Assembly: GCA_963719495.1 (NCBI GenBank)
Contig: CAVRCI010000002.1
Location: 384,001-448,000 of the forward strand
Length of the DNA: 64,000 nt
Direction of reading: 5' to 3'
Source of the DNA: an uncultured Verrucomicrobiae bacterium
GTDB lineage: Bacteria; Verrucomicrobiota; Verrucomicrobiia; Chthoniobacterales; JAATET01
How positions within the stretch are numbered: position 1 is the first letter of the stretch; each line of letters starts with the position of its first letter. A program made the translations under genes and the position numbers. The notes under the pieces were generated by a model. It saw only the letters and a program-made list of their open reading frames with translations, had not been told where the DNA came from and made no database searches. Shown here one piece after another: positions 1,592-44,527 of the stretch.

Positions 1592-1846
1592 TCAGTAGGT
1601 GAAAAGGTCCGCTTTAGTGAAGGTCTTGCCGGTTGCTTGGTTGAGCGCGGTGAGGACTAGTTTTTGACTGTGGGGGGTCAGGCGGCGGCCTTTGGTGGCT
1701 CTTGTGATGAGCTTGTGGGTGAGGTGCGTCGGGTTGGTGGCCACCAAGTCGTGCGGCTTGAGGCTGTGGTCGGCGAGGAGCTGGGCGAGGGGTTGTTCGC
1801 CCAAGTCTCTTTGGACAGGATCGACGGGATTTTCAGGATTATTCAT
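1592..1846 (-). CDS. Small conserved hypothetical protein (possible HTH-like DNA binder)
   Basis: 84 aa, RDLGEQPLAQLLADHSLKPHDLV..LTHKLITRATKGRRLT..DLFTY; C-ending codon usage like neighbouring minus-strand genes; N-terminus (NNPENPVDPV) is repeat-derived. Confidence 0.7.
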   Translation of the reverse strand: MNNPENPVDPVQRDLGEQPLAQLLADHSLKPHDLVATNPTHLTHKLITRATKGRRLTPHSQKLVLTALNQATGKTFTKADLFTY

Positions 1847-1916
1847 TGCCGGGTCTCGGCGGCCAAGCCGCCGATCATTTCATTCCAATCCGGTATATCC
1901 TGTTAATCCTGTCCAA
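1811..1916. repeat. ~105-bp inverted-repeat element with 9-nt periodic arms
   Basis: TTGGACAGGATCGACGGGATTTTCAGGAT ... ATCCTGTTAATCCTGTCCAA; terminal 11 bp perfectly inverted. Confidence 0.75.
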
Positions 1917-4410: not shown

Positions 4411-4421
4411 GATTTTTTGGT

Positions 4422-4449
4422 CCGCAGATTGAGCAGATTAACGCAGATT
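4422..4449. repeat. Solo 9-nt periodic repeat (CCGCAGATTGAGCAGATTAACGCAGATT)
   Basis: Three GCAGAT units at 9-nt spacing between dprA and topB; same geometry as the GxxExxY flanks. Confidence 0.6.
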
Positions 4450-4454
4450 TTGAT

Positions 4455-24204: not shown

Positions 24205-24675
24205 TCAGTATGTCGAAATCATATTAAGTATCTGGGCCACGGTGTTCTGGCTTTTTGGTAAAATCAGAGCGGGTGAAATCTCAACGATCGGCCGGAGAAC
24301 GAATTCCCGGACCGTGATTTTCGGGTGCGGGAGCGTCAATTCCGGTGTCTCGAGGACCGTGTCGCCGTGGTAGAGGAGATCGAGATCGAGGGGGCGCGGG
24401 GCGTTGGTGGCGCGGATTTTTGGACGGCCGTGGCTGGCCTCGATCCGCTGAAGTTTGTGGAGCAGATCGAGGGCGTTTCCGGGCCATTCGATCTCCATGG
24501 CGGCATTGAGAAAGGCGCCGGAGCCGGGCGGGCAGTCGACGGGCTCGGTCTCGTGGAACGTCGAGACGCGAACTTCGGACCCGGGCGGCGCGAGGGCGGT
24601 GACTTCGCGGACGGCAAGGTCGAGGTGGGCGGTCCGGTCACCCAGGTTGGACCCCAGTGATATCCCGGCACGCAT
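24205..24675 (-). CDS. folK: 2-amino-4-hydroxy-6-hydroxymethyldihydropteridine diphosphokinase
   Basis: LGSNLGDR, FLNAA, PRPLDLDLL, LTLPHP..REFVL. Confidence 0.95.
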   Translation of the reverse strand: MRAGISLGSNLGDRTAHLDLAVREVTALAPPGSEVRVSTFHETEPVDCPPGSGAFLNAAMEIEWPGNALDLLHKLQRIEASHGRPKIRATNAPRPLDLDLLYHGDTVLETPELTLPHPKITVREFVLRPIVEISPALILPKSQNTVAQILNMISTY

Positions 24676-24689
24676 CGGTCGGATCGGAA

Positions 24690-25430
24690 TCAGTCGCGAA
24701 GGCCGAGGACGTCCTGCATGTCGTAGAGGCCAGCGGGTTGATCGACGGCCCAGCGGGCGGCGCGGAGGGCTCCGTTGGCGAAGGTGTCGCGGGAGGAGGC
24801 CTTGTGGGTCAGCTCGACCCGTTCGCCGTCCGTGGCGAAGACGACGGTGTGGTCTCCGACGACGTCGCCCCCGCGGAGCGAGTGCATGCCGATCTCGGTG
24901 GCGGTGCGGGCGCCGACCATGCCCTCGCGGCCGTGGCGGACGTCGGTGGCGTAATCGAGGTCGCGGGCTTCGGCGAGGATTTCGGCGAGACGGCGGGCGG
25001 TGCCGCTGGGGGCGTCCTTTTTGTGGCGGTGGTGCAGTTCGACGACCTCGAGGTCGAAGTCGGGGCCGAGGATGTCGGTGGCCTTGCGGGTGAGCCAGAA
25101 GAGGGTGTTGACGCCGACGCTGAAGTTCGGCGCGAAGACGATCGGGATGCGGTCGGCGTGGGCAACAATGGCGGCGCGCTGGGTGTCGTCGTGGCCGGTG
25201 GTGCCGATCACGAGCGGTTTGTCGGCGGCGGCGCAGGCGTCGGCGACGTCCGCCGTGGCGGTGGCGTGGGAAAAATCGATGACGGCGTCCGCGGCACCGA
25301 GGGCGTCGGCGAGATTGTCATCGGCGTCGAGGGCGGCGGAGACTTCGAGGCCGTCGGTGGCTTCGGCGCAGCGGACGAGGGCTTCGCCCATGCGGCCGCG
25401 GGATCCGTTGATGAGAACGCGGAGGCTCAC
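24690..25430 (-). CDS. dapB: 4-hydroxy-tetrahydrodipicolinate reductase
   Basis: INGSRGRMG, IDFS, GTTG, APNFSVGVN, ELHHRHKKDAPSGTA; GTG start overlapping the dapA stop. Confidence 0.95.
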   Translation of the reverse strand: MSLRVLINGSRGRMGEALVRCAEATDGLEVSAALDADDNLADALGAADAVIDFSHATATADVADACAAADKPLVIGTTGHDDTQRAAIVAHADRIPIVFAPNFSVGVNTLFWLTRKATDILGPDFDLEVVELHHRHKKDAPSGTARRLAEILAEARDLDYATDVRHGREGMVGARTATEIGMHSLRGGDVVGDHTVVFATDGERVELTHKASSRDTFANGALRAARWAVDQPAGLYDMQDVLGLRD

Positions 25431-29635: not shown

Positions 29636-32600
29636 ATGCCGGAAGTATTGATCGCGGGGGCCGTCGAGCCATTTGAGCTGACCGTGAACGGTCGGAATAC
29701 AACGGTGAACGGGGTGTCGGCGGAGACCACTCTGCTGGAATGGCTGCGCGAGAATCGGGGGCTGACCGGGACGAAGATGGGCTGCGCCGAAGGAGATTGC
29801 GGAGCGTGCACGGTGTCGCTCGTCGACGCGGACGCGGGGGGGAAGCGGGTCGTGCGGTCGATCAATTCCTGCATCGCGTTGGTGGCGACTCTGGCTGGCC
29901 GCGAGATTCTCACCGTCGAGGGGCTGGCGGGCGCGGGCGGAGAATTGCATCCGGTTCAGTCGGCGATGGTGGAGTGCAATGGGTCGCAGTGCGGGTTCTG
30001 CACGCCGGGGTTCGTGATGTCGCTTTACGAGGGGTATGAGCGGGGGATTCTCGGCGATCCCTCGAAGGTGGCGGATCAGCTCAATGGAAACCTTTGCCGG
30101 TGCACGGGGTATCGGTCGATCGCGGAGGCTGCGGTGGTGGCGGGTGAGGGAAGTGCGGCTCCGCCGGTTGGGTCGGGTCCCGGGCTGGAAGCCCGGGACG
30201 GCGAGCTGGAAGCTCGCGCTCCCCAGCTTTCGCTGGCGCGGCTTTTGGAGATTCGGGCGGCGCATCCGGAGGCGGTGCTGGTGGCGGGGGCGACGGAGGT
30301 AGGCGTTGAGGTGACGAAGCGGTTTCGGCGGCTGCCGATGGTGGTGTCGCTGGACGGTGTCGCGGAGTTGAAGGGGTGCGCGCGGACGGCGGATGGGTGG
30401 CGGATCGGGGCCGGGGCGACGCTCACGGAGGTGGAGGATTTTTTGGCGGGCGAGTTGCCTGTCTTCGACGAGGTGCTGCGGTGGTTCGCCTCGCGGCAGA
30501 TTCGGAACCGGGCGACGCTGGGGGGAAACCTGGTGACCGGGTCGCCAATCGGGGACACGGCTCCGGTGCTGCTGGCGCTCGGCGCTTCGGTCGAGTTGGC
30601 GTGTGTGCGGGGCACGCGCGTCGTGGCGCTCGCGGAATTTTTCCTGGGATACCGTCAGACCGCCCTCGCGCTGGACGAGGTGATGACGGCGGTGCTGGTG
30701 CCGCGGCTGGCCAACGGGGCGGTGGCGGAGTTCGCAAAAATTTCGAAGCGGCGCGAGATGGACATCTCGATCGTGTCGGCAGCCTTCGTCCGAACGGAGG
30801 ATCGGGTCCGCTGCGCTTTTGGCGGCGTCGCCGCGACCCCGGTGCTGTGCGAGGTCAACTGGACGCCGGGCAGCGACCCCGAGCCGGTCGCCGCGGAACT
30901 TACCCGACGCTTCGACCCCCTGACGGACGCCCGCGGATCGGCCGCCTACCGCCGCAGCCTCGTCGCGGACATCTGGCGGAAATTCTGCGAAGGCGGCATG
31001 GCCGCGCTCCACCATTCACCATTCACGGCTCACCATTCACCAACCGAAGCTCTCCCCCACGAGTCGGCGATCGGCCACGTAACCGGAGCGGCGAAATACG
31101 TGGACGACATCGCGCTCTCGCGCGGGACGCTGACGATGTGGCCGGTCTGCTCCGAGCACGCCCACGCGCGGATCCTGAGTCTGGACGTGTCGGCTGCCGA
31201 GACGATGCCCGGGGTGTCCGTGGTGCTGACGGCGGCGGACGTGCCGGGGGTGAACGACGTGGGTTGCTCGCGGCCCGACGAGACGCTGCTCGCGAGCGAA
31301 ATTGTGGAATTTCACGGCCACCTCGTGGCGATGGTGATCGGGGAATCCGAGGCGGCTTGCCGGGCGGCGGCGAAGGCGGTCGTCGTGGAATACGAACCCT
31401 TGCGGCCAATTCTCACCATCGCCGAAGCGCGGGAGGCGGAGAGTTTTCACACCGATTCGAACGCGATCCGGCGCGGCGACGCGGCGTCAACGGTCGCGGG
31501 GGCGGCCCGGCGATTGGAGGGGGAATTTTCTCTCGGAGGGCAGGATCATTTTTACCTTGAGACGCAGGCCGCGTGGGCGGAAGTGACGCCGGACGGCGGG
31601 ATTCACGTGTGCTCTTCGACGCAGCATCCGACCGAAATTCAGATCATCGTGGCGCGGGTGCTGGGTCTTTCGCGCAACGACGTGGTCGTGGAAGCGCCTC
31701 GGATGGGCGGCGGCTTCGGCGGCAAGGAAACGCAGGGGAACACGTGGGCGGCGCTGGCGGCATGGGGTGCCGTGAAGACCGGGCGGCCGGTGCGGGTGAT
31801 GCTCGACCGCGATCTTGATCTTCGACTGAACGGCAAACGGCATCCGTTCTGGTCGCGATTCGAGGTGGGGTTCGACGACGAGGGCGTGCTGGTCGGTGCG
31901 ACGGTGGAATTGATTTCCAACGGCGGGTGGTCGCTCGACCTGTCGATGCCGATTCTCGACCGGGCGCTGTTTCACTTGGATAACGCGTATTACGTGCCGG
32001 CGGTGGATTTCTCCGGGCGCGTCGCGAAGACGAACCTCGTCTCGAACACCGCGTTTCGCGGCTTCGGCGGTCCGCAGGGGATGTTGGTGATGGAAGAGAT
32101 TCTCGATCGTGTCGCGCGGGAGTTGGGTTTGCCGCCGGAGGTCGTGCGGGAGCGCAACCTTTACCGGGGCAGCGGCGAAACGAACACGACGCACTACGGA
32201 CAGGAAATCGGCGACAATCGCGTGCGGGAAATGTGGGGCTCGCTCAAGGAGTCGGCGCGGCTCGCGGAGCGGCGGGCGGAAATTTCTCACTGGAACGCCG
32301 GGAGCGCGATGGTGAAGCGGGGGATTGCGATGACGCCCGTGAAATTTGGGATTTCCTTCACCTACACGCCCTACAACCAGGCGGGCGCGCTCGTGCTCAT
32401 TTACGCGGATGGGACCGTGCAGGTGAATCACGGCGGTACGGAGATGGGTCAGGGTCTGCACACGAAAATTCTTGGAATCGTGATGCGGGAGCTCGGCGTG
32501 CCGCGCGAGCGGGTGCGGATGATGTTCACGCGCACCGACAAGGTGCCGAACACGTCGGCGACGGCGGCGTCGAGCGGCGCGGATCTCAACGGGGCGGCTG

Positions 32601-33355
32601 TCGCCGATGCTTGCCGGAAGTTGGTGGAGCGGATGCGTCCGATCGCCGCGGAGATGCTGGGGGGCGGCGACCGGCCGCTGGTCTGGGGAGCAGGGAAAGT
32701 TTGGTTCGAGGGCGACCCGGGAAAGACGTTGGAATTCCCACAGCTTTGCAATGCGATGCACATGCGACGCGTTTCGCTGTCGGCGACCGGGTTTTACAAG
32801 ACGCCCGGGATCGAGTGGGACCGGGCCACGGGGAAAGGACGGCCATTTGCCTACTTCGCGTGCGGCGTGGCGGTGAGCGAGGTCGAGGTCGACGGGCGGA
32901 CGGGGATGCACCGCGTGCTGCGGACGGACATTCTCCACGACGTCGGGGATTCGCTGAACGAGCGCGTCGACCGGGGCCAGATCGAGGGTGGGTTCGTGCA
33001 GGGAATGGGCTGGCTCACGCGGGAGGAACTGAAGTGGGACGGGGAGGGGAAGCTGCTGACGAGCGGGGCCAGCACTTACGCGATTCCGGCGTTCAGCGAT
33101 CGGCCGGTGGATTTTCGGGTGAGCCTGCTGCCGAACGCGCGGCAGGAGGGCGTGATCGGTGGGAGCAAGGCCGTGGGGGAGCCGCCGCTCATGCTCGCGA
33201 TCTCGGTGCGGGAGGCGATTCGCGACGCGGTCGCGGCGTTCGGCGGCGAGGGGCGGGTGGAATTGGCTTCGCCGGCCAGCGTGGAGCAGATCTGGTGGGC
33301 GGTGCGGCGGCGGTTGGACTCGGGTGAAATTTTAACCGCGGATGGCGCGGATTAA
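29636..33355 (+). CDS. Xanthine dehydrogenase, single-chain XdhA-XdhB fusion (2Fe-2S, FAD, molybdopterin domains)
   Basis: GCAEGDCGACT, QCGFCTPG, NLCRCTGY; ASRQIRNRATLGGN FAD region; PHESA..HVTG, GGGFGGKE, TAFRGFGGPQG, KAVGEPP catalytic Glu; one uninterrupted 1239-aa frame. Confidence 0.92.
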   Translation: MPEVLIAGAVEPFELTVNGRNTTVNGVSAETTLLEWLRENRGLTGTKMGCAEGDCGACTVSLVDADAGGKRVVRSINSCIALVATLAGREILTVEGLAGAGGELHPVQSAMVECNGSQCGFCTPGFVMSLYEGYERGILGDPSKVADQLNGNLCRCTGYRSIAEAAVVAGEGSAAPPVGSGPGLEARDGELEARAPQLSLARLLEIRAAHPEAVLVAGATEVGVEVTKRFRRLPMVVSLDGVAELKGCARTADGWRIGAGATLTEVEDFLAGELPVFDEVLRWFASRQIRNRATLGGNLVTGSPIGDTAPVLLALGASVELACVRGTRVVALAEFFLGYRQTALALDEVMTAVLVPRLANGAVAEFAKISKRREMDISIVSAAFVRTEDRVRCAFGGVAATPVLCEVNWTPGSDPEPVAAELTRRFDPLTDARGSAAYRRSLVADIWRKFCEGGMAALHHSPFTAHHSPTEALPHESAIGHVTGAAKYVDDIALSRGTLTMWPVCSEHAHARILSLDVSAAETMPGVSVVLTAADVPGVNDVGCSRPDETLLASEIVEFHGHLVAMVIGESEAACRAAAKAVVVEYEPLRPILTIAEAREAESFHTDSNAIRRGDAASTVAGAARRLEGEFSLGGQDHFYLETQAAWAEVTPDGGIHVCSSTQHPTEIQIIVARVLGLSRNDVVVEAPRMGGGFGGKETQGNTWAALAAWGAVKTGRPVRVMLDRDLDLRLNGKRHPFWSRFEVGFDDEGVLVGATVELISNGGWSLDLSMPILDRALFHLDNAYYVPAVDFSGRVAKTNLVSNTAFRGFGGPQGMLVMEEILDRVARELGLPPEVVRERNLYRGSGETNTTHYGQEIGDNRVREMWGSLKESARLAERRAEISHWNAGSAMVKRGIAMTPVKFGISFTYTPYNQAGALVLIYADGTVQVNHGGTEMGQGLHTKILGIVMRELGVPRERVRMMFTRTDKVPNTSATAASSGADLNGAAVADACRKLVERMRPIAAEMLGGGDRPLVWGAGKVWFEGDPGKTLEFPQLCNAMHMRRVSLSATGFYKTPGIEWDRATGKGRPFAYFACGVAVSEVEVDGRTGMHRVLRTDILHDVGDSLNERVDRGQIEGGFVQGMGWLTREELKWDGEGKLLTSGASTYAIPAFSDRPVDFRVSLLPNARQEGVIGGSKAVGEPPLMLAISVREAIRDAVAAFGGEGRVELASPASVEQIWWAVRRRLDSGEILTADGAD

Positions 33356-33363
33356 CGCGGATG
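33333..33363 (+). repeat. 31-bp 9-mer-periodic repeat, left flank of GxxExxY gene
   Basis: TAACCGCGGATGGCGCGGATTAACGCGGATG; contains the xdh stop and supplies the GxxExxY ATG. Confidence 0.85.
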
Positions 33364-33741
33364 ATTCATGAGGATTTGAGCGGTGGGATTCTCGGAGCTT
33401 CGATGACGGTCCTGAATGCCCTGAAGCCGGGGTTGGATGAGAAGGTCTACGAGAATGCCTTGGTGGTCGAACTCCGGAAGCAGGGTCACGTCGTCGAACA
33501 GCAGCGGATTTTTCCGGTCCACTACGACGGGGTGTTGGTCGGGAAGCTGGTGCCGGATCTGATCGTCGATGGCTCCGTGATCGTGGACCCCAAAGTGGTG
33601 AGGGATTTTTCCGAATCTCATTTCGCGCAAATGATCGGATATCTCGCGATCACCGGGCTGGAATTGGCTCTTTTGGTGAACTTCAAATTCGCGCGCCTCG
33701 AATGGAAACGGGTTGTGCGTGAGCACCGGGCGGGTGGATGA
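33361..33741 (+). CDS. GxxExxY family protein (PD-(D/E)XK nuclease-like)
   Basis: LKPGLDEKVYENAL, PDLIVDGSVIVDPK, AQMIGYL, LLVNF..LEWKR. Confidence 0.9.
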   Translation: MIHEDLSGGILGASMTVLNALKPGLDEKVYENALVVELRKQGHVVEQQRIFPVHYDGVLVGKLVPDLIVDGSVIVDPKVVRDFSESHFAQMIGYLAITGLELALLVNFKFARLEWKRVVREHRAGG

Positions 33742-33747
33742 GGTTTC

Positions 33748-33829
33748 TAACCGCGGATGGCGCGGATTTGCGCGGATGGTGTCCTGATTTTTTTTCATTA
33801 TCCGCGTTTATCCGCGTCATCCGCGGTTA
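33748..33829. repeat. Right flank of GxxExxY gene: direct copy plus inverted copy forming a hairpin
   Basis: TAACCGCGGATGGCGCGGATTTGCGCGGATG (33748-33778) and ATCCGCGTTTATCCGCGTCATCCGCGGTTA (33800-33829). Confidence 0.85.
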
Positions 33830-33839
33830 AATTCATTCC

Positions 33840-35441
33840 ATGCAGGTTATTTCGGGGCAGTTCGTGGATTTGGTGGCGCGGGAGATTTATCCGGCGGCGG
33901 TGACGGTTTTTGATGGGAGGATCGCGGCGATTGCGCGGGTCGAGGAGGCGGTGGGTGGGTTTCTCATTCCAGGCTTCGTGGATGCTCACGTTCACGTGGA
34001 GAGTTCGATGCTGCCGCCCTGCGAGTTCGCTCGGATCGCGGTGCGGCATGGATCGGTTGGGTCGGTGAGCGATCCGCACGAGATTGCGAACGTGCTGGGG
34101 GTCGAGGGGGTGGCGTTCATGTTGGCGGAAGGGGCGCGGACGCCTTTCAAGTTCTGCTTCGGTGCGCCGAGTTGCGTGCCGGCGACGACGTTCGAGACGG
34201 CGGGGGCGGAATTGGACATCAATGCGGTGGCGGCGCTGCTGGCGCGGGACGACGTGGGGTATCTGAGCGAGGTGATGAATTGGCCGGGCGTGCTGGGCGG
34301 CGATCCCGGGATGATCGCGAAGATCGCGGCAGCGAAGGCGGTCGGGAAGCGGGTCGACGGCCACGCGCCGGGGTTGCGCGGAGACGATGCGCGGGCTTAC
34401 GCGGCGGCGGGGATCGAGACCGACCACGAGTGTTTCACGCTGGACGAGGCATTGGATAAGATCGACGCCGGGATGCAGATCGCGATCCGCGAGGGATCGG
34501 CGGCGAAGAATTTCGAGGCGCTCGAGCCGCTGCTCACGTCGCACCCGGATTCGTGCATGCTGTGTTCCGACGACGTGCACCCGAACGCGCTCGTCCGCGG
34601 CCACATCGATCGCCTGGTGGCGCGGGCCGTGGCGGGCGGCGCGGACGTGTTCGACGTGCTGCGGGCCGCGTGCGTCCGCCCGGTCGAACACTACGGGCTA
34701 CCGATCGGCCGGCTGCGGGTGGGGGACGCGGCGGACTTCGCGATCGTGGAGGATCTCGTCGATTTTCGAGTTCGGGAGACTTGGATCGATGGCGCTTGTG
34801 TGGCCAGGAATGGAACGTCGCTGATCGAGCGTCGGGAAGTGCTCGAGGTCGTGAATCGGTTCGAGGCGAACGAAGTCGCGGCGTCGGATCTCGCGGTCGA
34901 CGCGGAGCGGGTGAACGTGATCGTCGCCCGCGACGGGCAGCTGATCACCGGCGCCGAGGTTGCCGACGTCTCGGATTCGGATGTTCTCAAGATCGTGGTC
35001 GTGAACCGCTACGCCGCGGCGGAGCCAGCCGTCGGTTTTGTCCGCGGATTCGGACTCAAACGCGGAGCGATCGCGTCCACGGTCGCGCACGATTCGCACA
35101 ACGTCGTGGCGGTCGGAACGACTGACGAGGAGTTGGCAATCGCGATCAACGCGGTGATGCGGTCGCGAGGCGGGATTTGCGCGGTCGCTGGGGAGGACAT
35201 TCGATTGCTGCCGCTGGAGATCGCCGGACTGATGGCGACGGGCGACGGGGACGAGGTGGCGGCGGCCTACGAGCGGATCGCGGAGTTCGCGACGAACGAG
35301 CTCGGATCGACGCTGCGCGACCCGTTCATGACGCTTTCGTTCATGGCGCTGCTCGTGATCCCGAATCTAAAGATGAGCGACCGGGGACTGTTTTCCGGCG
35401 CGGCGTTCGAGTTTCGTGACGTGGTCGTCCAGAATGGCTGA
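33840..35441 (+). CDS. ade: Adenine deaminase
   Basis: PGFVDAHVHVESSM, DPHEIANVLG, DGHAPG, DHE, REGSAAKN, STVAHDSHN, LSFMALLVIP. Confidence 0.95.
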   Translation: MQVISGQFVDLVAREIYPAAVTVFDGRIAAIARVEEAVGGFLIPGFVDAHVHVESSMLPPCEFARIAVRHGSVGSVSDPHEIANVLGVEGVAFMLAEGARTPFKFCFGAPSCVPATTFETAGAELDINAVAALLARDDVGYLSEVMNWPGVLGGDPGMIAKIAAAKAVGKRVDGHAPGLRGDDARAYAAAGIETDHECFTLDEALDKIDAGMQIAIREGSAAKNFEALEPLLTSHPDSCMLCSDDVHPNALVRGHIDRLVARAVAGGADVFDVLRAACVRPVEHYGLPIGRLRVGDAADFAIVEDLVDFRVRETWIDGACVARNGTSLIERREVLEVVNRFEANEVAASDLAVDAERVNVIVARDGQLITGAEVADVSDSDVLKIVVVNRYAAAEPAVGFVRGFGLKRGAIASTVAHDSHNVVAVGTTDEELAIAINAVMRSRGGICAVAGEDIRLLPLEIAGLMATGDGDEVAAAYERIAEFATNELGSTLRDPFMTLSFMALLVIPNLKMSDRGLFSGAAFEFRDVVVQNG

Positions 35442-35501: not shown

Positions 35502-35533
35502 AAGACTACGCCTTGGGAAGACTACGCCTTGGG
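35502..35533. repeat. Perfect 16-bp tandem duplication over the epsI stop codon
   Basis: AAGACTACGCCTTGGG twice. Confidence 0.8.
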
Positions 35534-36268
35534 AGCCTCGGATTTCATGATGTCGGGCGCGATCTTTTGGATGAAGTCTTCGAGCATCTCGAGGGTCTCG
35601 GCCTCGTTCTTACCGTTCGGTTTGAATCGATCCAGGATGGTCGAACTTGCGATCACGTAGGCCCAACGGTGGTTGGTATTGGTGAGGAGGACGTCGAGGT
35701 TGGTCTTGAGGACGCGGACGAGGTGGCTGGCCGTGACCGTGTCCTTTCCGACGAACCAATAGAGGTAAATGCTGTCGAGCTCGGCGGTTTTCCCGTCGAC
35801 CTCGATGGGGCGCGAGATCCGGAGCATCGTGACCGGGAGTTTCGAGCCGCTGGGGAGATCGATCCGAAGGGTTTCGGTTGATTTGATCGTCCAGCCCTGG
35901 CCGGGCAGACAGAGTTCAGGGCGGTGGATGCTTCGACGTTCAGCTCCAGCGAGGACGATCTGAGCGTTGACCGAGTCGCCCTGAGCGTCCGAGTAGAGCA
36001 TTTTCTGAAATTCCGTATCGTCCGGGAGGACAATGCGTTCCGCTTCGGACACTTCCTGCGGGATCCCGGCGAAATCGCCGACGGTCGAGGGCAGGTTCAT
36101 CTGAATGCCGGTCTCGGGTCCCGCCACGATGGAACTCCCCCCCAGTAGACAGAATGCGATCACGCCCGCGGTGAGCGTGAGAAGGACGGCTCCGGTTGCA
36201 AGCAAACGCCGGAAGCCCGGGAAAGTCGCGGTCGGGGAACTTGCGATGGAGTGGATGTCAGTAGGCAT
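35522..36268 (-). CDS. epsI: Exosortase-associated EpsI family protein
   Basis: N-terminal TM, SIHRPELCLPGQGW motif, YLYWFVG; downstream of the exosortase. Confidence 0.85.
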   Translation of the reverse strand: MPTDIHSIASSPTATFPGFRRLLATGAVLLTLTAGVIAFCLLGGSSIVAGPETGIQMNLPSTVGDFAGIPQEVSEAERIVLPDDTEFQKMLYSDAQGDSVNAQIVLAGAERRSIHRPELCLPGQGWTIKSTETLRIDLPSGSKLPVTMLRISRPIEVDGKTAELDSIYLYWFVGKDTVTASHLVRVLKTNLDVLLTNTNHRWAYVIASSTILDRFKPNGKNEAETLEMLEDFIQKIAPDIMKSEAPKA

Positions 36269-37310
36269 CTTCGAAGTTTGTTTTGCTCTGGATCCCGGTG
36301 TGGCGGCGCCCTGGAGCGGGTTTCTCATGGTGGAACGCTTCCCGCACGCGGGCGGTGGCGTTCTGGATTGCACTGGACCAATTCATCATGAGCAGGTGAC
36401 CGAGGCCGAGCATCCCGGCCAAGGCGACCACGAAGACGGCGTAGCCGGCAGCGTGGTGAAAGACGGTGGGGTGCTCGAGCGATCCGATGGCAAATTCCGG
36501 ACCAAACGCGATGGTTCCCAAAGTGAGCAACATGATGCGCGCCATGTTGCCAACCACCGCCAGCGGGACGGCGCAGGCAAAGAGTAGCCACTGTTTCCAC
36601 ACGGGCCGCACGGCGAACCAAGCGTAGAGAGCTGTCACCATGGTCAGCGCGAAGAGGGACCTGATGCCGCTGCACGGATCGGCAACGTCCACGGAAAATC
36701 CCGAACCCCGCGGGAGCTGGAGGAGCGCGTTCGGAGCGGAAAGGATTGCGGTGCCTTGTTGGACGGTCGCGATGCCGAGGCCATTGAGCAGGACGACGCT
36801 GGCGTCCGACATGATGAGGCGGAGTCGGAAGGCCAGCATAGTCTCAAGGAAAATGAGCGGGAGCGCGAAGCAGAGAAACGCCCACGGGAAAGCCAACTCG
36901 CGCATCCAGCGCCAGCCGAAGATAAGAATGATCCCGCCGAGGAGGATCAACATCAGCGACGTGATGCCGATGAAGTAATTGTCGACGCGGTAACCCACCC
37001 AGTAGCTGAACAGACCGAACGCGAGCGGCAGGACTCCCAGGAAAGCGCCGCGCACGGGCAGCGCCGCCAAGCTCTCCCGTTTTCGCCACACCAGAAACGC
37101 GACGATTCCGGGCACGAGAAAACAGTGTTGCCATTCCTCGCCCCGCCAAAACTTGAAGGTGTAATAGGTGAGCGGAAAGCGATCCGGACTGTAGCCAGTG
37201 GCGTAGGGGACGGCCGCGAACAGCACCGCAAAAACCGCTAGAACGAGGACGGATCCAATCCAAGCGGCGCGATATTTCGGAGACAGGAGGAGAGACTTGA
37301 AGGTGGACAC
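36258..37310 (-). CDS. Exosortase (EpsH family)
   Basis: Multi-TM; VADPCSGIRSL (catalytic Cys), GNMARI (Arg), FHHAAG (His). Confidence 0.9.
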   Translation of the reverse strand: MSTFKSLLLSPKYRAAWIGSVLVLAVFAVLFAAVPYATGYSPDRFPLTYYTFKFWRGEEWQHCFLVPGIVAFLVWRKRESLAALPVRGAFLGVLPLAFGLFSYWVGYRVDNYFIGITSLMLILLGGIILIFGWRWMRELAFPWAFLCFALPLIFLETMLAFRLRLIMSDASVVLLNGLGIATVQQGTAILSAPNALLQLPRGSGFSVDVADPCSGIRSLFALTMVTALYAWFAVRPVWKQWLLFACAVPLAVVGNMARIMLLTLGTIAFGPEFAIGSLEHPTVFHHAAGYAVFVVALAGMLGLGHLLMMNWSSAIQNATARVREAFHHEKPAPGRRHTGIQSKTNFEDAY

Positions 37311-37485
37311 AAGATGCTTGCCTCAGATGATGACAGAAAAGCGGGACATTGCCAGCGACGGAAATTCCGTCTCTGCCTCCCTGCGATCGGGGTGGGAGGG
37401 TCACGCGATGCGATGCGGCTTTCCGCGGGGTTCGCGAGCGGATTCAGGCTTGAATGTCGTCCCGAATGATCCAGTTTTCGACGCG

Positions 37486-38268
37486 ATGAAGGAACGAGCC
37501 CCGGCCCCGCGCGTCAACATTCTCGGCGTGGGTGTGAGCGCAGTTTCCCTGTATCAGGCGACCCGCCTCATCGTCGACGGATTGGCTGGGGGCGCGCGCG
37601 GCTACGTCACCGTGACGGGCGTGCATGGGGTGACCGAAGCTCAGACCGACCCCAAATTTCGAACGATCCTCAACGAAGCGTGGATGACGACGCCCGACGG
37701 GATGCCGCTTTCTTGGATCGGGCGTTCCCAGGGTTTCGGCTCGATGGATCGGGTTTACGGGCCGGATCTGATGTTGCAGGTCTTTGCCGCCACCCAGGAT
37801 GGATCGGTCCGGCATTTTTTCTACGGGGGCAATGACGGAGTCGCGGAGGATCTCAAGTCGGCCATGGAGAACCGATTTCCCGGCGTCAATGTCTGTGGGA
37901 CCCTTACGCCGCCGTTCCGACCGCTGACCGACGAGGAAGAGTATGGATTGAGCGAAAGCGTACGGGCCTGTCGCCCCGATCTTCTCTGGATTGGCCTGAG
38001 CACGCCGAAGCAGGAACGCTTCATGGCATCCCACCTTGGGAAACTCGACGTTCAAATGATGGTCGGGGTGGGGGCGGCGTTCGATTTTCACACCGGACGA
38101 GTTTCCCAGGCTCCGTATTGGATGCAGATGGCCGGTTTGGAGTGGCTCTACCGGCTGTGCCACGAACCCCGGCGTCTCGGCCGAAGGTATCTGGTCAATA
38201 ATCCCTTGTTCATTGTCCGGATGATTGGGCAATATTGCGGGTTCCAACGGCAATTGCCGTTCAACTGA
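37486..38268 (+). CDS. WecB/TagA/CpsF family glycosyltransferase (GT26)
   Basis: PDGMPL, RVYGPDLM, FFYGG, GLSTPKQE, GVGAAFDF, GLEWLYRL..EPRRL.RRY. Confidence 0.92.
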   Translation: MKERAPAPRVNILGVGVSAVSLYQATRLIVDGLAGGARGYVTVTGVHGVTEAQTDPKFRTILNEAWMTTPDGMPLSWIGRSQGFGSMDRVYGPDLMLQVFAATQDGSVRHFFYGGNDGVAEDLKSAMENRFPGVNVCGTLTPPFRPLTDEEEYGLSESVRACRPDLLWIGLSTPKQERFMASHLGKLDVQMMVGVGAAFDFHTGRVSQAPYWMQMAGLEWLYRLCHEPRRLGRRYLVNNPLFIVRMIGQYCGFQRQLPFN

Positions 38269-38301
38269 GGTCCGTTTAGGGCCCTCGAAACCTTTATTCT
38301 T

Positions 38302-39297
38302 ATGTCGAACAGTTCACTCATCGTTGTCACCGGAGCCGGCGGGTTTATCGGCGGTCACCTCGTTCGGGCGCTGTGGAACGACGGCCATCGAAACATTCGG
38401 GCGGTCGACAAGAAGCCGCTGGACGAATGGTTTCAAGCCCTCGACGGCGTGGAAAATGTCGTGCTCGATTTGCAGCTGCTCGAAGCGTGCCACGCCGCGG
38501 TGAAAGATGCCGGGATCGTCTACAACCTGGCCGCCGACATGGGCGGGATGGGTTTCATCGAGTTGAACAAGGCCCTGTGCATGCTGAGCGTGTTGATCAA
38601 CACGCACTTGCTGGTCGCCGCCAAGGAGGCCGGGGTCGAGCGGTATTTTTACGCCTCTTCCGCGTGCGTCTACGCCGCGGACAAGCAAGTCGACACGGCG
38701 GTGACCGCTTTGAAGGAGTCGGACGCTTATCCCGCGATGCCGGAGGACGGGTATGGCTGGGAAAAATTATTCAGCGAGCGGATGTGCCGCCATTACCAGG
38801 AAGATTTTGGTCTCGTGACGCGGGTTGCGCGATACCACAACGTTTACGGCCCGGAGGGAACCTACGACGGCGGCCGGGAGAAAGCGCCCGCGGCGATCTG
38901 CCGTAAGGTGATCGAAGCAAAATTGTCCGGCAATCACGAGATCGAAATTTGGGGCGACGGCGAGCAGACGCGTAGCTTCCAATTCATCGACGATTGCGTG
39001 AAGGGAACCCGGATGTTGATGGAGAGCGATTTCAGTGATCCCATCAATCTGGGGAGCAGCGAAATGGTCTCGATCAATCAGCTGGTCGACATCGTCGAAG
39101 AAATCGCGGGGATCAAATTGGAGCGAAAATACAATCTTTCGGCTCCCAAGGGTGTCAACGGACGAAACAGCGACAACGAATTGATTCAAGAGGTTCTCGG
39201 ATGGGAACCCTCGACGCGCTTGAAGGACGGACTCGCGATCACCTACCAGTGGATTCTCGAGGAAATCGAGAAGAAGAGCGTTCACGAGATGGCCTGA
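38302..39297 (+). CDS. NAD-dependent epimerase, GDP-mannose 3',5'-epimerase-like
   Basis: TGAGGFIG, AADMGGMGFI, SSACVY, PEDGYGWEK, GGREKAPAAICRK, WGDGEQTRSF, GRNSDN. Confidence 0.85.
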   Translation: MSNSSLIVVTGAGGFIGGHLVRALWNDGHRNIRAVDKKPLDEWFQALDGVENVVLDLQLLEACHAAVKDAGIVYNLAADMGGMGFIELNKALCMLSVLINTHLLVAAKEAGVERYFYASSACVYAADKQVDTAVTALKESDAYPAMPEDGYGWEKLFSERMCRHYQEDFGLVTRVARYHNVYGPEGTYDGGREKAPAAICRKVIEAKLSGNHEIEIWGDGEQTRSFQFIDDCVKGTRMLMESDFSDPINLGSSEMVSINQLVDIVEEIAGIKLERKYNLSAPKGVNGRNSDNELIQEVLGWEPSTRLKDGLAITYQWILEEIEKKSVHEMA

Positions 39298-39453
39298 GAT
39301 TTTCAGGTGTTCGAAGTGGGTCGGATACCGGCTCGTCTTTTCTCCGCCTGCTCGCTCGATTCCCGTCCCAAACTCAAGAGATCGTTCAGCCCGCGCAATC
39401 CTGGGCTCGTCTCTACGCTGGACATCATGGAGAGGCTGGGATCTTTACAGTGA

Positions 39454-41292
39454 ATGCTTTCATCTCCTCGCCAAGTTCCAAAGTGGGCTTTGTTGTTGCT
39501 CCTGCTAGGAACGGTTGTCGGCCTCGGATTGGTGGTCGGTCCAATCATGCACGAGTCCGACCAGGCGTCGTTCCTGCGGGGAGCGGAGCGCTTGAGTTCT
39601 GGAAAGGATTCGCCGTGGGCGGCGTCGTTTTACAATTACGATAAGCAATTCGGGGCGTATTGGATCGTTGCGGCGGTGCGATGGGCGGCTCCCGGCGCGG
39701 ATCTGGTGCTCCTGGGCAATGTCGTGAGCTTCGCGATTTTCTGGGGAGGTTTGGCGGTGTTGTTGGTTGTCCGCCCATGCCGGAGCTGGCTGCAGGTGGC
39801 GGCGGTGGCCAGCTGTTTTCTGGCACCCGCGTATCTCATCCACACGCCGTTTCTGGCGTCGGCCTTCATGGCCAATGGATTTTTGTTTCTCGCGGCGGCT
39901 TGCTGGGGTGGGGGACGCTTTCGGCTCTCGCGGCGGATGGGTTCGCTGGTGGCGCTGGCGTTGGCGACCGCGTGCCGGGCGGATGCGCTTCTCGTGCTGC
40001 CACTCTTCGCGTGGCTGGTGATCCCGGTGAGCGGACCGATGGGGTGGCTGCGGCGGAAATGGGTTTACGCGATCGCGTTTTCCGGGATCGTCGTTGTGGT
40101 GTTGGGTCGGTGGGTTTATTCCGGCGATCCGATCGACCTTCATCCGCCGTTTTTCTATCCAAAGATTTTTGCGGCGTTCTTCGTGTTTGGAATGGGGGCC
40201 GCGGCGCTCGTCTCGGCACTCCTCGGGGCGAGGCTGCTCGGGGTGGCGATCCGACGGATGCGCCGGGGGCCGCGGCTGGCAATTTTCTACGCCGGGGGCC
40301 TTGTCGCGCTGTTTGTCCCGATGGGATATTACTCGGTGCAATTGTTCTCACCGCGCTACTGGGCGGTTTTTCTGGCGGGGATGATCCTGTTTCTTGCGAG
40401 TCGCCGGGGCGAGCGATTGCTGCGTTCGATTGCGGGCCGTTGGCAACTGCCAATGGCGATCGCTCTAATGATCGCGTCGCTGGCACCGGTGTGGGTCGGT
40501 GTTCGGTTGCCGGATATGCGGCATCCCGCTCTGACTTCGAATTCTCCGACCCTTTTCCCTTCGGCGGATGGCTGGATTCCGATGGGTGCCTTTGCGAGTC
40601 ATTTGGCTCGAACGCGGTCGGGTGCGGAGGGTGGCGTCGATCACAATCAGGCGACGTGGTTGGCGGCAATGTCGGCGGATTACGGTGAGGGATCCGGCGC
40701 GGTCCCGGTGCTGCAGACTCCGCTCCAGACCTACCTCGAATTGGCGATCGAGCTGAAGGGGCGGACGTGGCGACAGTCCCGCGATGGGGATCCGACGATG
40801 ATGACGGACCTTCGGCAGCTGCTTCGTGAAAACAACGCCTTCACGGGACTAGCGGATCAGGATGTCGGTGCGTTGCGGTCGGTTTATGGCATCGAGGTGG
40901 TCTCGGACGTCGTGGATGGCTATTGCATCGTGCGCCTCGAGCGGGGGGCGGCGACCTCGCCGGAGGTCGAACGGCTGTTCGGGCTGAGTCGTTTGTTCGG
41001 CGGGAACGAATTCGAGCTGATCGATGGGGGCGGTGAAATCTCGGAGCGCCTCGGCGGACCGGAATGGGCGGGCAAATCGGTCGTGCTCTACGGTCCGGTT
41101 GCATTCACGGTCGAGACGACGGGACCGGATGGAATCCCGAGGAGCGTCACGGCCAAGAAGGACGCGGATATTGGCTACGGCCTCGTTTTGACCGGGGCCG
41201 ACCGGCTGGAAGCGAGTTTTTCCGTGGCGGGAAGCCTGCCGCGGGCCGCGGTCGCGAGACTGCCGGACTACATGAGGGTCCAGGGGCTCTAG
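39454..41292 (+). CDS. Large multi-pass membrane protein, possible GT-C glycosyltransferase
   Basis: About 10 hydrophobic segments, acidic ESDQ after TM1, soluble C-terminal domain; function inferred from context only. Confidence 0.6.
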   Translation: MLSSPRQVPKWALLLLLLGTVVGLGLVVGPIMHESDQASFLRGAERLSSGKDSPWAASFYNYDKQFGAYWIVAAVRWAAPGADLVLLGNVVSFAIFWGGLAVLLVVRPCRSWLQVAAVASCFLAPAYLIHTPFLASAFMANGFLFLAAACWGGGRFRLSRRMGSLVALALATACRADALLVLPLFAWLVIPVSGPMGWLRRKWVYAIAFSGIVVVVLGRWVYSGDPIDLHPPFFYPKIFAAFFVFGMGAAALVSALLGARLLGVAIRRMRRGPRLAIFYAGGLVALFVPMGYYSVQLFSPRYWAVFLAGMILFLASRRGERLLRSIAGRWQLPMAIALMIASLAPVWVGVRLPDMRHPALTSNSPTLFPSADGWIPMGAFASHLARTRSGAEGGVDHNQATWLAAMSADYGEGSGAVPVLQTPLQTYLELAIELKGRTWRQSRDGDPTMMTDLRQLLRENNAFTGLADQDVGALRSVYGIEVVSDVVDGYCIVRLERGAATSPEVERLFGLSRLFGGNEFELIDGGGEISERLGGPEWAGKSVVLYGPVAFTVETTGPDGIPRSVTAKKDADIGYGLVLTGADRLEASFSVAGSLPRAAVARLPDYMRVQGL

Positions 41293-41430
41293 AGCATTTC
41301 TAGTAATGGCGTGGCAGCTCAGAGCTATTGTGGTCGCCGTGTCGGCGACTTGGCGCTTGTGTGACGTGACTACTACGTCCAGAGAATGCGTCGCAAAGCG
41401 ACGCGACTACAGAATTCTTAAAAATGCTCT
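41291..41430. mobile_element. Possible MITE-like element (~140 bp)
   Basis: Ends AGAGCATTT ... AAATGCTCT (9 bp perfect, extendable with mismatches); internal palindromes GTCGCCG..CGGCGAC and GCGTCGCAAAGCGACGC. Confidence 0.4.
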
Positions 41431-41446
41431 CTTTGGTCAAGTTCGG

Positions 41447-42544
41447 TCAGGCCAGATCGTCGAACGTCTTGAGAGCAAACGCGACCACTTGGTCCATGTT
41501 GTAATACTTGTATTGCGCGAGTCGCCCAACGAAGTGGACGTTTGGCTCGGCGGCTGCGAGGGATTGGTATTTCTCGAATTGCCGCTGACAGTCGGGCGCT
41601 GGGATCGGGTAGTAGGCTTCCCGGCCTACCGTGTATTCCTCCGGGAATTCGCGGACGATGGTGGTGTTGGGAGCCCGCTGGCCGGTGGCGTGCTTGATCT
41701 CGACGATGCGGGTGAAGTCGTGGTCGTTCGGGTAGTTGATCTGCATCGCGGATTGGAAAAATTCGACCGGGAGGGATTCGCGCTCGAATCGCAGGGACCG
41801 ATAGGGAAGGGGGCCGAACCGAAAATCGAAATACTCGTCGATCATCCCGGTGAAGATCAGGGAATCGAACGAGAATTGGTCCAGGGCCGAGCGGAAATCG
41901 AGGCCGAGTTCGACGGTGATGAGCGGGTGGTCGAGGAGTCGGCGGAAGAGTGCCGTGTAACCTTCCTTCGGGAGGGCTTGGAAGCGCTCGGAAAGATACC
42001 GATCGTCGCGATTGAAGCGAAGCGGGATGCGGCCGCACACCGAGGCGTCGAGATCGCGCGGGTGCCGGTTCCATTGTTTCAAGGTGTAACCTTCGAAGAA
42101 CATCTCGTAGAGCGGGCGGCCCACTTGCGAAAGGATGACCTCCTCGGAATTCGTTGGATTGGGAATGTCCATCCGCCAACCGGCCAGGGTCGACTCCATT
42201 TCTTCCGGCGTCGAATGATGACCGACGAATTGCTCGAACGTATTGAGATTGATCGGGAAGTTCCACAGGCGGCCGTGCGTGTTGGAGAGGATGCGGTAAT
42301 CAACCGGATGCCAGTCGGTGAACTGGCTGAGATAATCGATGATCTTCTGTGAGTTCGTCCGAAAATAATGCGGTCCGTAGCGGTGAACGAGGATTCCGGA
42401 GGGATCGAATTCGTCGTAGGCGTTGCCGCCGATGTGGTCCCGGCGGTCGATGAGTAGACATTTCTTACCGGCGACGCTGGCGAGGCGTTCGGCGAGGACG
42501 GCACCGGCGAACCCGGCTCCGACGATGAGGTGGTCGAAATGCAC
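41447..42544 (-). CDS. glf: UDP-galactopyranose mutase
   Basis: IVGAGFAG, HIGGNAYD, HRYGPHYFRTN, GYTLKQW, LPYRSL, YYPIP, GRLAQYKYYNMDQ. Confidence 0.95.
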   Translation of the reverse strand: MHFDHLIVGAGFAGAVLAERLASVAGKKCLLIDRRDHIGGNAYDEFDPSGILVHRYGPHYFRTNSQKIIDYLSQFTDWHPVDYRILSNTHGRLWNFPINLNTFEQFVGHHSTPEEMESTLAGWRMDIPNPTNSEEVILSQVGRPLYEMFFEGYTLKQWNRHPRDLDASVCGRIPLRFNRDDRYLSERFQALPKEGYTALFRRLLDHPLITVELGLDFRSALDQFSFDSLIFTGMIDEYFDFRFGPLPYRSLRFERESLPVEFFQSAMQINYPNDHDFTRIVEIKHATGQRAPNTTIVREFPEEYTVGREAYYPIPAPDCQRQFEKYQSLAAAEPNVHFVGRLAQYKYYNMDQVVAFALKTFDDLA

Positions 42545-42557
42545 GTTCAGTGTGGGA

Positions 42558-43280
42558 TCACGAGATCGATTGGAGATGCGTGCGCAGTTCGAGCGCTTTG
42601 CTGCCGAAGCTGCTGAGAGCCACGTGGGGCTCGCCACCGTAACGCTCACGAAACCGGATCGGAACGTAACCGTGGCGAACATCGGAAGCCCGCCCGAGCA
42701 GGACAGCGAGGCCGATATTCACGAGAGAAAACGACGCGGGCATCCGGTCGATCTCGGGTTGGAGCGCGGTCGTTCGCATCAAACGATATGGGACGTTTGC
42801 GTCGCGACAATTCACGCGGGTCGTGGCGAGCAGGAAAATTCTTAGCACGAGGCTGGCGACGACGCGCTTGAAGCCGTCGTCACGATGTTTGCGGACGCCG
42901 TAGATGACATCAAAGGCTTCCCGTTCCCGCCAGAATTTGAAGAAATATTGCGGATCGCACTGACCGTCGGAATCGATTTGGAGGATGTGGCGCGCGCCCC
43001 GTTCGGCGGCCATTCGGTAACCGTGCAGGCAGGCTTGTCCGTGCCCGGCGTTTTTTTGCGTGACGACCTGAAGCCGGGTTCCGATGGCTTGCTGAAGCCG
43101 CTCGAGGATCTCCAAGGTCCCGTCGGTGGAACCGTCGTTGATCACCAGAATTTGGAAATCTTCGGTCCACCCCGCGATCTCCTCGTTCCACTCGATGATG
43201 ACCTTCCGGATGGACGCGTGCTCGTTGTAAACCGGGATGACGACGGTGAGCTGAGGCTGGGTGGACGGATCGGCCTGCAT
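42558..43280 (-). CDS. Glycosyltransferase family 2, polyprenol-phosphate glycosyltransferase (DPM1-like)
   Basis: VVIPVYNE, INDGSTDGT, NAGHGQA, QIDSDGQCDP, VPIRFRER.GG. Confidence 0.85.
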   Translation of the reverse strand: MQADPSTQPQLTVVIPVYNEHASIRKVIIEWNEEIAGWTEDFQILVINDGSTDGTLEILERLQQAIGTRLQVVTQKNAGHGQACLHGYRMAAERGARHILQIDSDGQCDPQYFFKFWREREAFDVIYGVRKHRDDGFKRVVASLVLRIFLLATTRVNCRDANVPYRLMRTTALQPEIDRMPASFSLVNIGLAVLLGRASDVRHGYVPIRFRERYGGEPHVALSSFGSKALELRTHLQSIS

Positions 43281-43411
43281 GAGAAAAGGGTGCCGATATC
43301 AACATTTGACGCGGGGATGTCGATCCCTAATCCCGGATCGGCGATGGGCTGGCTAACGAGGGAGCGGGCGAGCCGAAGAGCCGTTGATCCTGATTGGCGA
43401 AGGCCCGCTTT

Positions 43412-44527
43412 TCAGCGGGTGAGATGGCTTATGGCGACTTGTTCGTAGACGGCGAGCGTCCGTTCGGCAATTTTTCGCCACGCGTATTTTTCCCGGAGGC
43501 GAGCGGCGAGTTCGCGAGCGGTGTCGGGCGACATCGAGAGAACGGCAGCGACCGCCGACTCGAAAGAATCCGGATCGGCGTGAGAGAATCCGCCGATCGC
43601 CGGATGATCGAGAATTTCCGCCGTCGCGGTTTCTTCGACGAATACGACGGGGGTGCCGACGAACGTAGCTTCCAAGGCCGGGAGGCCGAATCCCTCGATC
43701 TCGGAGGGAAATATCAGGGCGCGGGCGGAGGCGAATGTCTCAAGGAGTTCGGAGGTGGTCGGGATGGTCTGGCTCTGAACGTTGCGACAGCTCGATGCCA
43801 GCATCTTTTGGTGGGGAGTGAGATCGCCGACGAGGAGCAGTCCGGGGTGGTCGGGGTGTCGGGTTTCGAACAATCGCCAGAGTTCCAGCAAGCGGTCGAT
43901 TTTTTTGTGGGGAAGCGGCGAGGCCAGAGCGACGACTTGGTTCGTCTGTTTCGCGGTGCGATTGGTGGCCACCGGATCATCGAAACACCCTTGGTAAGTT
44001 ACGGTAATGGGGGGCGGGCGGATGGCGAACCGGTCGCAGAAGGACAGGATTGCCCGACGTGAAAATTCCGAGACGGTGATCACGTGGTCGGAGCGAGCGA
44101 TCGAGTAGCGAAGCAGGTGCGACCAGTAGGCACCGGCAGAGCGACTCCGGGCAGCCGGGTAATGGTCGACGTAATGCTGAATGATGGTGTCGTGAATCGT
44201 CGTTACGCGAGGGGTCGACGGCAGGAAGAAAGGGAGAAATCCCTTGGGGTAGTGGCAGAGGGTGGCCGGGGGCAGAAAGGGCCCGTGCAGGTGATCAACG
44301 GCGAGGCGGAGGATCGGCCCGTCGGTAGCGACCGGCAGACATCGAGAGTGGTCGGAACGGGCGGGCGCGGCGGACGACTTCGATGTGAGATAGCGAAGCT
44401 CGACCCGGCTGAGGCGCTCGAGGGCTTCCGCGAGTTGGAGCGAGTAACCGGTGATGCCGCGACTGCGGTCGCGGTGGGGGTTTTGGTCGGCCAGATAGAA
44501 GGCGACGCTCGGCGGCGAGAAGATCAT
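43412..44527 (-). CDS. Glycosyltransferase family 4
   Basis: TIHD, ITVSEFS, HKK, FPSEIEGFGLPALEA. Confidence 0.88.
   Translation of the reverse strand: MIFSPPSVAFYLADQNPHRDRSRGITGYSLQLAEALERLSRVELRYLTSKSSAAPARSDHSRCLPVATDGPILRLAVDHLHGPFLPPATLCHYPKGFLPFFLPSTPRVTTIHDTIIQHYVDHYPAARSRSAGAYWSHLLRYSIARSDHVITVSEFSRRAILSFCDRFAIRPPPITVTYQGCFDDPVATNRTAKQTNQVVALASPLPHKKIDRLLELWRLFETRHPDHPGLLLVGDLTPHQKMLASSCRNVQSQTIPTTSELLETFASARALIFPSEIEGFGLPALEATFVGTPVVFVEETATAEILDHPAIGGFSHADPDSFESAVAAVLSMSPDTARELAARLREKYAWRKIAERTLAVYEQVAISHLTR

Follow-up and report, generated by a model that had tools for sequence, protein, structure and literature searches.

The cassette between xdh and ade

The window, a 64,000-nucleotide stretch of the genome referred to here as G000, contains a gene for a 126-residue GxxExxY protein between xdh and ade, surrounded by two direct copies and one inverted copy of a periodic repeat, which we call arms (Table 1). 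The arm coordinates and the matches of the open reading frame to TIGR04256 (GxxExxY, 120 bits against a cut-off of 35) and PF13366/PDDEXK_3 (112 bits against 22) bear out the initial annotation of this locus. Each arm has three CGCGGAT units, as had been noted, but the period is not a constant 9 nt: in 3/3 arms the spacing is 9 nt and then 10 nt. A two-unit arm pattern has three matches in the window against 0.26 expected, and three or more were reached in 0 of 100 shuffles.

The left and middle arms are 34 nt long each and 91% identical in direct orientation. As previously described, the left arm holds the xdh stop codon (33353-33355) and ends in the ATG of the GxxExxY gene. In the congener G001 the xdh stop lies 5′ of the arm, so a stop inside the arm is not required. 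The middle and right arms form a hairpin 3′ of the gene (-33.6 kcal/mol, z -8.8); the left arm alone folds weakly (z -1.4). It had been proposed that loss of the gene between the direct repeats would leave a single hairpin. Pairing with the right arm is better for the left arm (35 nt, 91%) than for the middle one (30 nt, 87%). The left and right arms are likely the two ends of the element, and in our reading these outer, inverted arms make up the unit, to which the middle arm was added. A change common to both outer arms of G001 is absent from its middle arm, which marks the outer pair as the unit.

The GC content of the GxxExxY gene is 56% and that of the neighbouring genes 66-67%. Open reading frames and a profile search of the cassette revealed no transposase or integrase, in agreement with the initial annotation. 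Upstream in the window, profile matches indicate a ureidoglycine aminohydrolase and an allantoate amidohydrolase-family gene; 3′ of ade, at 35522-44527, lie what we take, by their translations alone, to be exosortase-like genes and a polysaccharide cluster.

Table 1. Positions of the genes, arms and hairpins in the window and, by contig, of four-helix-bundle genes elsewhere in G000
Feature	Position	Strand	Remarks
xdh, fused XdhA-XdhB xanthine dehydrogenase	29636..33355	+	Host gene; TIGR02965, 972 bits over cut-off; TIGR02963, 426 bits, below cut-off
Left arm	33330..33363	+	Three CGCGGAT units after T-rich lead, 9 and 10 nt spacing
GxxExxY gene	33361..33741	+	126 aa; PD-(D/E)XK fold (predicted)
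Middle arm	33745..33778	+	Direct copy of left arm; half of local hairpin
Loop of local hairpin	33778..33799	no strand	22 nt
Right arm	33797..33831	-	Inverted copy; end 8 nt 5′ of ade start
ade, adenine deaminase	33840..35441	+	Host gene; TIGR01178, 563 bits over cut-off
Single gene-less arm	4415..4450	+	Same arm family, CGCAGAT subtype
Gene-less hairpin	1811..1916	no strand	CAGGAT arm type, as flanking the gyrB-gyrA paralog
Four-helix-bundle gene within inverted arms	C13:633290-634125
Four-helix-bundle gene within inverted arms	C9:195998-196415
Four-helix-bundle gene within inverted arms	C4:181381-181795
Four-helix-bundle gene within inverted arms	C13:564532-564965
Four-helix-bundle gene within inverted arms	C2:716152-716723
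Four-helix-bundle gene within inverted arms	C1:196160-196664

The GxxExxY protein

The structure of the GxxExxY protein was predicted with a pLDDT of 95. Foldseek matches to the model were led by LHK-Exo (3syy) and the Cas4 protein SSO0001 (4ic1), with E values of 3e-4 to 7e-4. By structural comparison SSO0001 (Z 8.0, rmsd 3.2, 98 aligned residues) ties with BpuSI (Z 8.0), and Hjc (1gef) follows with a Z score of 7.1 (rmsd 3.1, 85 aligned). The protein is thus similar in fold to the RecB/Cas4/lambda-exonuclease-like and Hjc nucleases, but differs from them in its length of 126 residues, in having no Fe-S cluster, since it contains no cysteine, and in sequence, the identity to the fold matches being 12-21%. 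Conserved positions are Glu-27, Pro-65-Asp-66, Asp-76-x-Lys-78 and Gln-90-x3-Tyr-94; of these, Glu-27, Asp-66, Asp-76, Lys-78, Gln-90 and Tyr-94 recur in 80-82 of the 82 members of the clade (Asp-66 in 82, Asp-76 and Lys-78 in 81 each). RecB-type nucleases are known to have a QxxxY motif. According to the model, the protein has the PD-(D/E)XK nuclease fold recognized earlier, with conserved active-site residues, and nuclease activity is predicted. Because the Z scores are middling and the fold is common to restriction and tRNA-splicing endonucleases, it does not fix the substrate. A homodimer prediction scored 0.00 and gave no answer.

Between G000 and G001 the GxxExxY proteins are 87% identical (xdh 90%, ade 83%) with a dN/dS of 0.076 (xdh 0.11, ade 0.14). 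This identity in step with the flanks and the low dN/dS indicate that the cassette was inherited in place in these two genomes, under purifying selection. The family is present in 91 of the 121 genomes of the order. A phage collection contained no match to the protein, seven plasmid records matched it, all at less than 60% identity, and anti-phage defence models (PADLOC) gave 0 families at E 0.1. At loci L037 and L044 the GxxExxY reading frame continues in frame through the right arm into the next gene, giving open reading frames of 388-397 residues; L263 has the same layout.

Arms across the genome

A matrix search of G000 found 79 arm matches above 16 bits and 71 above 20 bits, compared to two and none in a shuffled genome. 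The arm thus occurs about 70 times, mostly without a gene. The 71 arms, with the three of the cassette among them, group into 49 sites, of which 29 are single arms, 19 are convergent pairs and one is a double pair. Divergent pairs number one, versus the 19 convergent ones. Paired arms have a median score of 37.1 bits (n = 43) and single arms one of 35.1 bits (n = 28; p = 0.16). Each of the four GxxExxY genes of G000 has an arm type of its own, copies of which are also found elsewhere without a gene. As judged by eye, three of the four paralogs have the layout arm-gene-arm-inverted arm. Some hairpins at different loci have loops in common.

Around 19 hairpins, whose ends are undefined and whose copies are old, no excess of 2-4-nt direct repeats was found at nine offsets that would indicate a target duplication. 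The arm position matrix lacks a GTAG/CGTC tag. Rfam yielded no family at gathering score, its two chance miRNA matches reaching 22 and 21 bits against 95. By a crude gene caller, whose calls span 68% of the genome and do not include ade, most single arms are right-hand, inverted arms just 5′ of a start codon. One single arm lies at C7:1478-1513 and C16:3265-3300 and also at locus L213, beside a gene that, judged from its start, presumably resembles cas4. The near-identity of this arm in G005 suggests that transferred blocks may carry arms with them.

Arm type follows the protein clade

In the bacterial family, we sampled 53 of 73 GxxExxY matches (all 27 of the genus and, of the 46 others, the 26 with the best E-values). 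An inverted pair with at least 20 matches in 26 nt encloses the gene in 46 of the 53 cassettes and in 0 of 103 controls. With an arm matrix built from 68 arms that lie outside both the window and the C15 cassettes, the window-type arm was found at 7/7 paralogs at least 50% identical to the window protein and at 1/46 below this identity.

Metagenomes and genomes yielded 118 loci, 99 of which passed the filters (55% identity, full flanks). The arm is present at 97 of the 99, compared to 17 of 166 distal control windows, and at 62 of 64 after removal of near-copies. Therefore both expectations of the initial annotation, that homologues generally have such flanks and that the repeat is not placed at random relative to them, hold in these samples. 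Its direct-gene-direct-inverted layout is not the general unit: 67 of the 99 loci have an enclosing inverted pair, 18 have a downstream direct arm in addition, and six have the exact layout of the window. As the inverted pair is common and the direct repeat in the minority, the general mechanism is not excision between direct repeats. Altogether the gene takes 13 layouts relative to the hairpins.

The 99 loci and the window represent 64 gene contexts, and xdh-ade is the context at none of the 99. Record titles name Verrucomicrobiota in 39 and Planctomycetota in 28 of 74 named rows. In the clade tree the phyla are mixed but clustered, and with 8 of 72 branches starred it is too poorly resolved to establish cross-phylum transfer. 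A broad alignment contained no stretch conserved enough for a locus scan, and the cross-phylum sample is therefore that of the window protein's clade. The match of clade and arm is not exclusive, as a second GxxExxY clade has near-identical arms.

Within a locus the arms co-vary (23.5 of 28 versus 20.0 ± 0.5 when shuffled), and the sense strand shows no excess of G-T (20 vs. 15, 13 vs. 14, 32 vs. 38), which fits pairing of DNA rather than of RNA. A reading of the arms as an RNA-level hairpin or intervening sequence is made less likely by this result and by the Rfam search.

Gene-less arms in the order

Across the 121 genomes, with clade membership set at more than 185 bits and three arms per cassette subtracted, the median number of gene-less arms is 18 in the 17 genomes with the window clade, 0.5 in the 74 with other GxxExxY genes only and 0 in the 30 without GxxExxY. 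Permutation within five families gave p = 2e-5 for arm number against clade, the kin genomes not being independent. Arms are nevertheless present in eight of the 30 genomes without the gene, and no GxxExxY match was found in G082 (98% complete, 26 arms) or G084 (91%, 21 arms). G077 (131 arms) and G124 (43 arms) lack the window clade and have the second clade that uses near-identical arms. Arm-enclosed stretches, four from G077 and one from each of G027, G082 and G064, appear by eye to be nested hairpins or other repeats. In G077, hairpins are nested in the loops of other hairpins.

Turnover at gene junctions

The xdh-ade junction differs among five congeners. G001 has the cassette, G002 and G005 have a lone CAGGAT-type arm and no gene, and G003 and G004 have no repeat; in other family genomes where xdh adjoins ade the gap is mostly 7-48 nt. 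Relatives thus do not keep the gene stably here (1/5), as the initial annotation implied, and of the alleles it anticipated the empty one occurs in two congeners, but a hairpin-only allele of the window arm type was found in none of the five. Contigs from sequencing runs (one DNA run with a quarter of the query words; two runs of the same study; no RNA run was among those listed as matching) did not span the cassette. One read joint across it was discarded, having 28 letters on a side and coming from a run with almost none of the query words.

From 41 arm sites of four congeners, 24 were mapped to G000. By eye, 12 of these have the same arm family, six another periodic type (one of them a four-helix-bundle cassette) and four none, and two are ambiguous. 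At one junction, followed by a gene we take to be cysN, G001 and G010 have GxxExxY and G000 has a four-helix-bundle cassette. At another, preceded by a gene we take to be cysS, G001 has an intact cassette, G003 a decayed one and G004 a short remnant. The loop was inverted in one of four hairpins compared between congeners (C8:32407-32508 of G000 vs. L225).

The four-helix-bundle genes (TIGR02436; nine matches in G000, eight of them full genes) have a parallel class of arms, mostly of 7-nt period, which also occur without a gene elsewhere in G000 (Table 1). At shared junctions these cassettes and GxxExxY cassettes or hairpins replace one another. The four-helix-bundle proteins are not known to be nucleases, and arms can thus accompany a non-nuclease gene.

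How might the arms and the gene spread?

We hypothesize, and give it an even chance, that the gene and its arms are a partnership similar to REPIN/RAYT that would be run by a RecB/Cas4-like nuclease and host repair. The GxxExxY protein would recognize its own arm type and cut at arm pairs, and gene junctions would receive copies of the pair, made by host repair, that may or may not include the gene. The protein may act in cis on its cassette and on gene-less hairpins in trans. Decay of cassettes and copying of hairpins are both likely sources of the gene-less copies. The clade-arm match, the dispersed gene-less copies, the junction turnover and the replacement at gyrB-gyrA described below support this reading. 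It is also favored by the enclosing inverted pairs, the 64 contexts, the near-invariant active-site residues and low dN/dS, the co-variation of the arms, the lack of Y1 genes near arms in G000, and the nested hairpins, common loops and inverted loop. Against it are the arm-rich genomes without GxxExxY, the non-exclusive arm type, the four-helix-bundle arms, the lack of target duplication at the 19 hairpins and the lack of a significantly higher score for paired arms than for single ones (p = 0.16), where better-conserved doublets would be expected of REPINs. It also counts against it that a stand-alone nuclease has no ligating chemistry. Because gene and arms are inherited together, the clade-arm match can be hitchhiking.

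A wider form of the hypothesis falls somewhat short of an even chance. Here GxxExxY proteins would be the enzymes of widespread, undescribed mobile DNA, in which a PD-(D/E)XK nuclease of about 120 residues reads a clade-specific periodic arm and cuts pairs, and host repair alone spreads its gene and gene-less hairpins into operon junctions. The four-helix-bundle genes with their 7-nt arms would be a parallel class competing for the same junctions.

Could the gene instead home into arms that are already in place? In this unlikely alternative, cleavage by the nuclease at a gene-less hairpin or a resident cassette would be followed by copying of the gene into the site by recombination, the homology being provided by the arms or by conserved flanking genes; one special form of this would be an arm-gene circle that integrates into a hairpin. 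The gyrB-gyrA junction favors it. A GxxExxY cassette is found there in the ten family genomes examined and in G124, and the G000 copy (C14:135968-136408) is only 56% identical to that of G001, compared to 99% for GyrA. Two host sister pairs that have support of 100/100 and 98/98 in the flanks are rejected by the tree of the cassette, with p-AU values of 0.0004 and 0.0001 at the protein level and 0.0002 and 0.001 at the DNA level; for the gyrB flank the DNA tree was used, the G007 row being spoiled in the protein tree. By these trees, a paralogous cassette was replaced at this junction. Two further groupings are, however, not rejected: G000 with G001 (p-AU 0.09 and 0.15) and the four congeners (0.06 with protein; with DNA they form one clade anyway). 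The 13 layouts of gene and hairpins and the arrangement of three of the four G000 paralogs also fit homing, while the lack of a hairpin-only allele at xdh-ade in five congeners and the divergence of the gene there in step with its flanks do not. Moreover, homing leaves unexplained how gene-less arms reach new junctions and why their number follows the gene.

It is less probable still that the protein serves the host by binding paired arms to organize the chromosome or regulate operons, with the arms spreading slowly by ordinary recombination. Strong purifying selection in place and long residence at junctions such as gyrB-gyrA would agree with this, and so would the position of the arms, which by the crude gene caller lie between co-directional genes at 33 of 49 sites (32 of 55 were co-directional on both sides in a second test, a weak one by a method 85% right on known genes). 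Regulator or IHF/HU sites have been proposed for paired periodic arrays in Geobacter (PMC2700814). But in congeners one and the same junction may carry an unrelated arm type or another small gene, or be empty, the 64 contexts have no common neighbour, a cassette decays at the presumed cysS junction, and the nuclease residues are nearly invariant.

Similarly improbable is that a RAYT-like or IS transposase, or a factor that also serves the four-helix-bundle cassettes, moves the arms and that GxxExxY is cargo. This would account for arm-rich genomes without the gene (G082, G084) and for two unrelated small gene families that have the same layout and swap at one junction, and the arm-rich G000 and G001 have nine and 12 Y1 transposase (PF01797) matches. 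However, the nine in G000 are all more than 5 kb away from any arm, the numbers of Y1 matches and of arms do not track each other (16 matches and three arms in G007, two and 22 in G014, none and nine in G016), arm number follows the cognate clade within families, and no other gene is evident by eye in the enclosed stretches of G077, G027, G082 and G064.

Relation to known systems

REP, REPIN and RAYT features, REPtrons and TIRtrons are defined in the excerpted parts of PMC3733652 and PMC3116915. REPIN/RAYT and the system described here have in common that repeats flank one or a few genes for an enzyme and also occur as dozens of extragenic inverted doublets without a gene, that a genome has several enzyme-repeat pairs, and that there are nested and tandem clusters. 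In contrast, the enzyme here is of the PD-(D/E)XK type (PF13366) and RAYT is a Y1 HUH enzyme; the arms consist of tandem 8-10-nt units and REPs are short palindromes with GTAG/CGTC tags; the GxxExxY gene itself occurs in many contexts; and the doublets do not score significantly above singlets (p = 0.16). The Geobacter arrays resemble the arms in their three tandem units per arm on opposite strands, variable loop and location in intergenic gaps, and in one pair the two arms are separated by 438 nt, which is cassette size; their unit sequence differs, and PMC2700814 lists no gene between the 438-nt pair.

Free-standing homing endonucleases likewise are small nuclease genes in a junction that are replaced across host lineages, but GxxExxY has no single fixed site (64 contexts) and no intron or intein. 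The cassettes share with MITEs the short, non-autonomous inverted-repeat unit and differ from MITEs and IS elements in that no target duplication was found and no DDE transposase is in the cassette. We rate the cassette with its arms as lying outside every family tested: its layout is like that of REPIN/RAYT with no component in common, and we regard it as a new kind, for which the mechanism is proposed.

In the excerpts of earlier work, PF13366 is listed as ‘Unknown’ with multiple transfers (PMC3424549), GxxExxY is named once, beside a reverse transcriptase (bioRxiv 2021.01.26.428298), the term is contained in PMC12085832, and multicopy repeats are mentioned in PMC2996986 and PMC3543383. No description of the gene-arm link was found in the literature searched, which left subscription journals mostly uncovered. 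GxxExxY is a large family without an assigned function, and the link gives each clade a predicted DNA substrate, so that function becomes directly testable with a 126-residue protein and a 100-nt oligonucleotide. If the hypothesis of a nuclease acting with host repair is true, short repeats would spread without HUH, DDE or recombinase chemistry, intergenic repeat families once read as regulator sites would be explained, and the family would offer very small sequence-directed nucleases with natural specificity variants.

As seen by eye, a Y1/RAYT-like open reading frame in G000 (C13:379474-380114) lies within its own 48-nt inverted repeat, which is unrelated to the arms. The junction at 24675-24690 of the window, between genes that we take to be dapB and folK, is short and empty; in G051 (L265) this place is occupied by a GxxExxY cassette whose arms are of another type.
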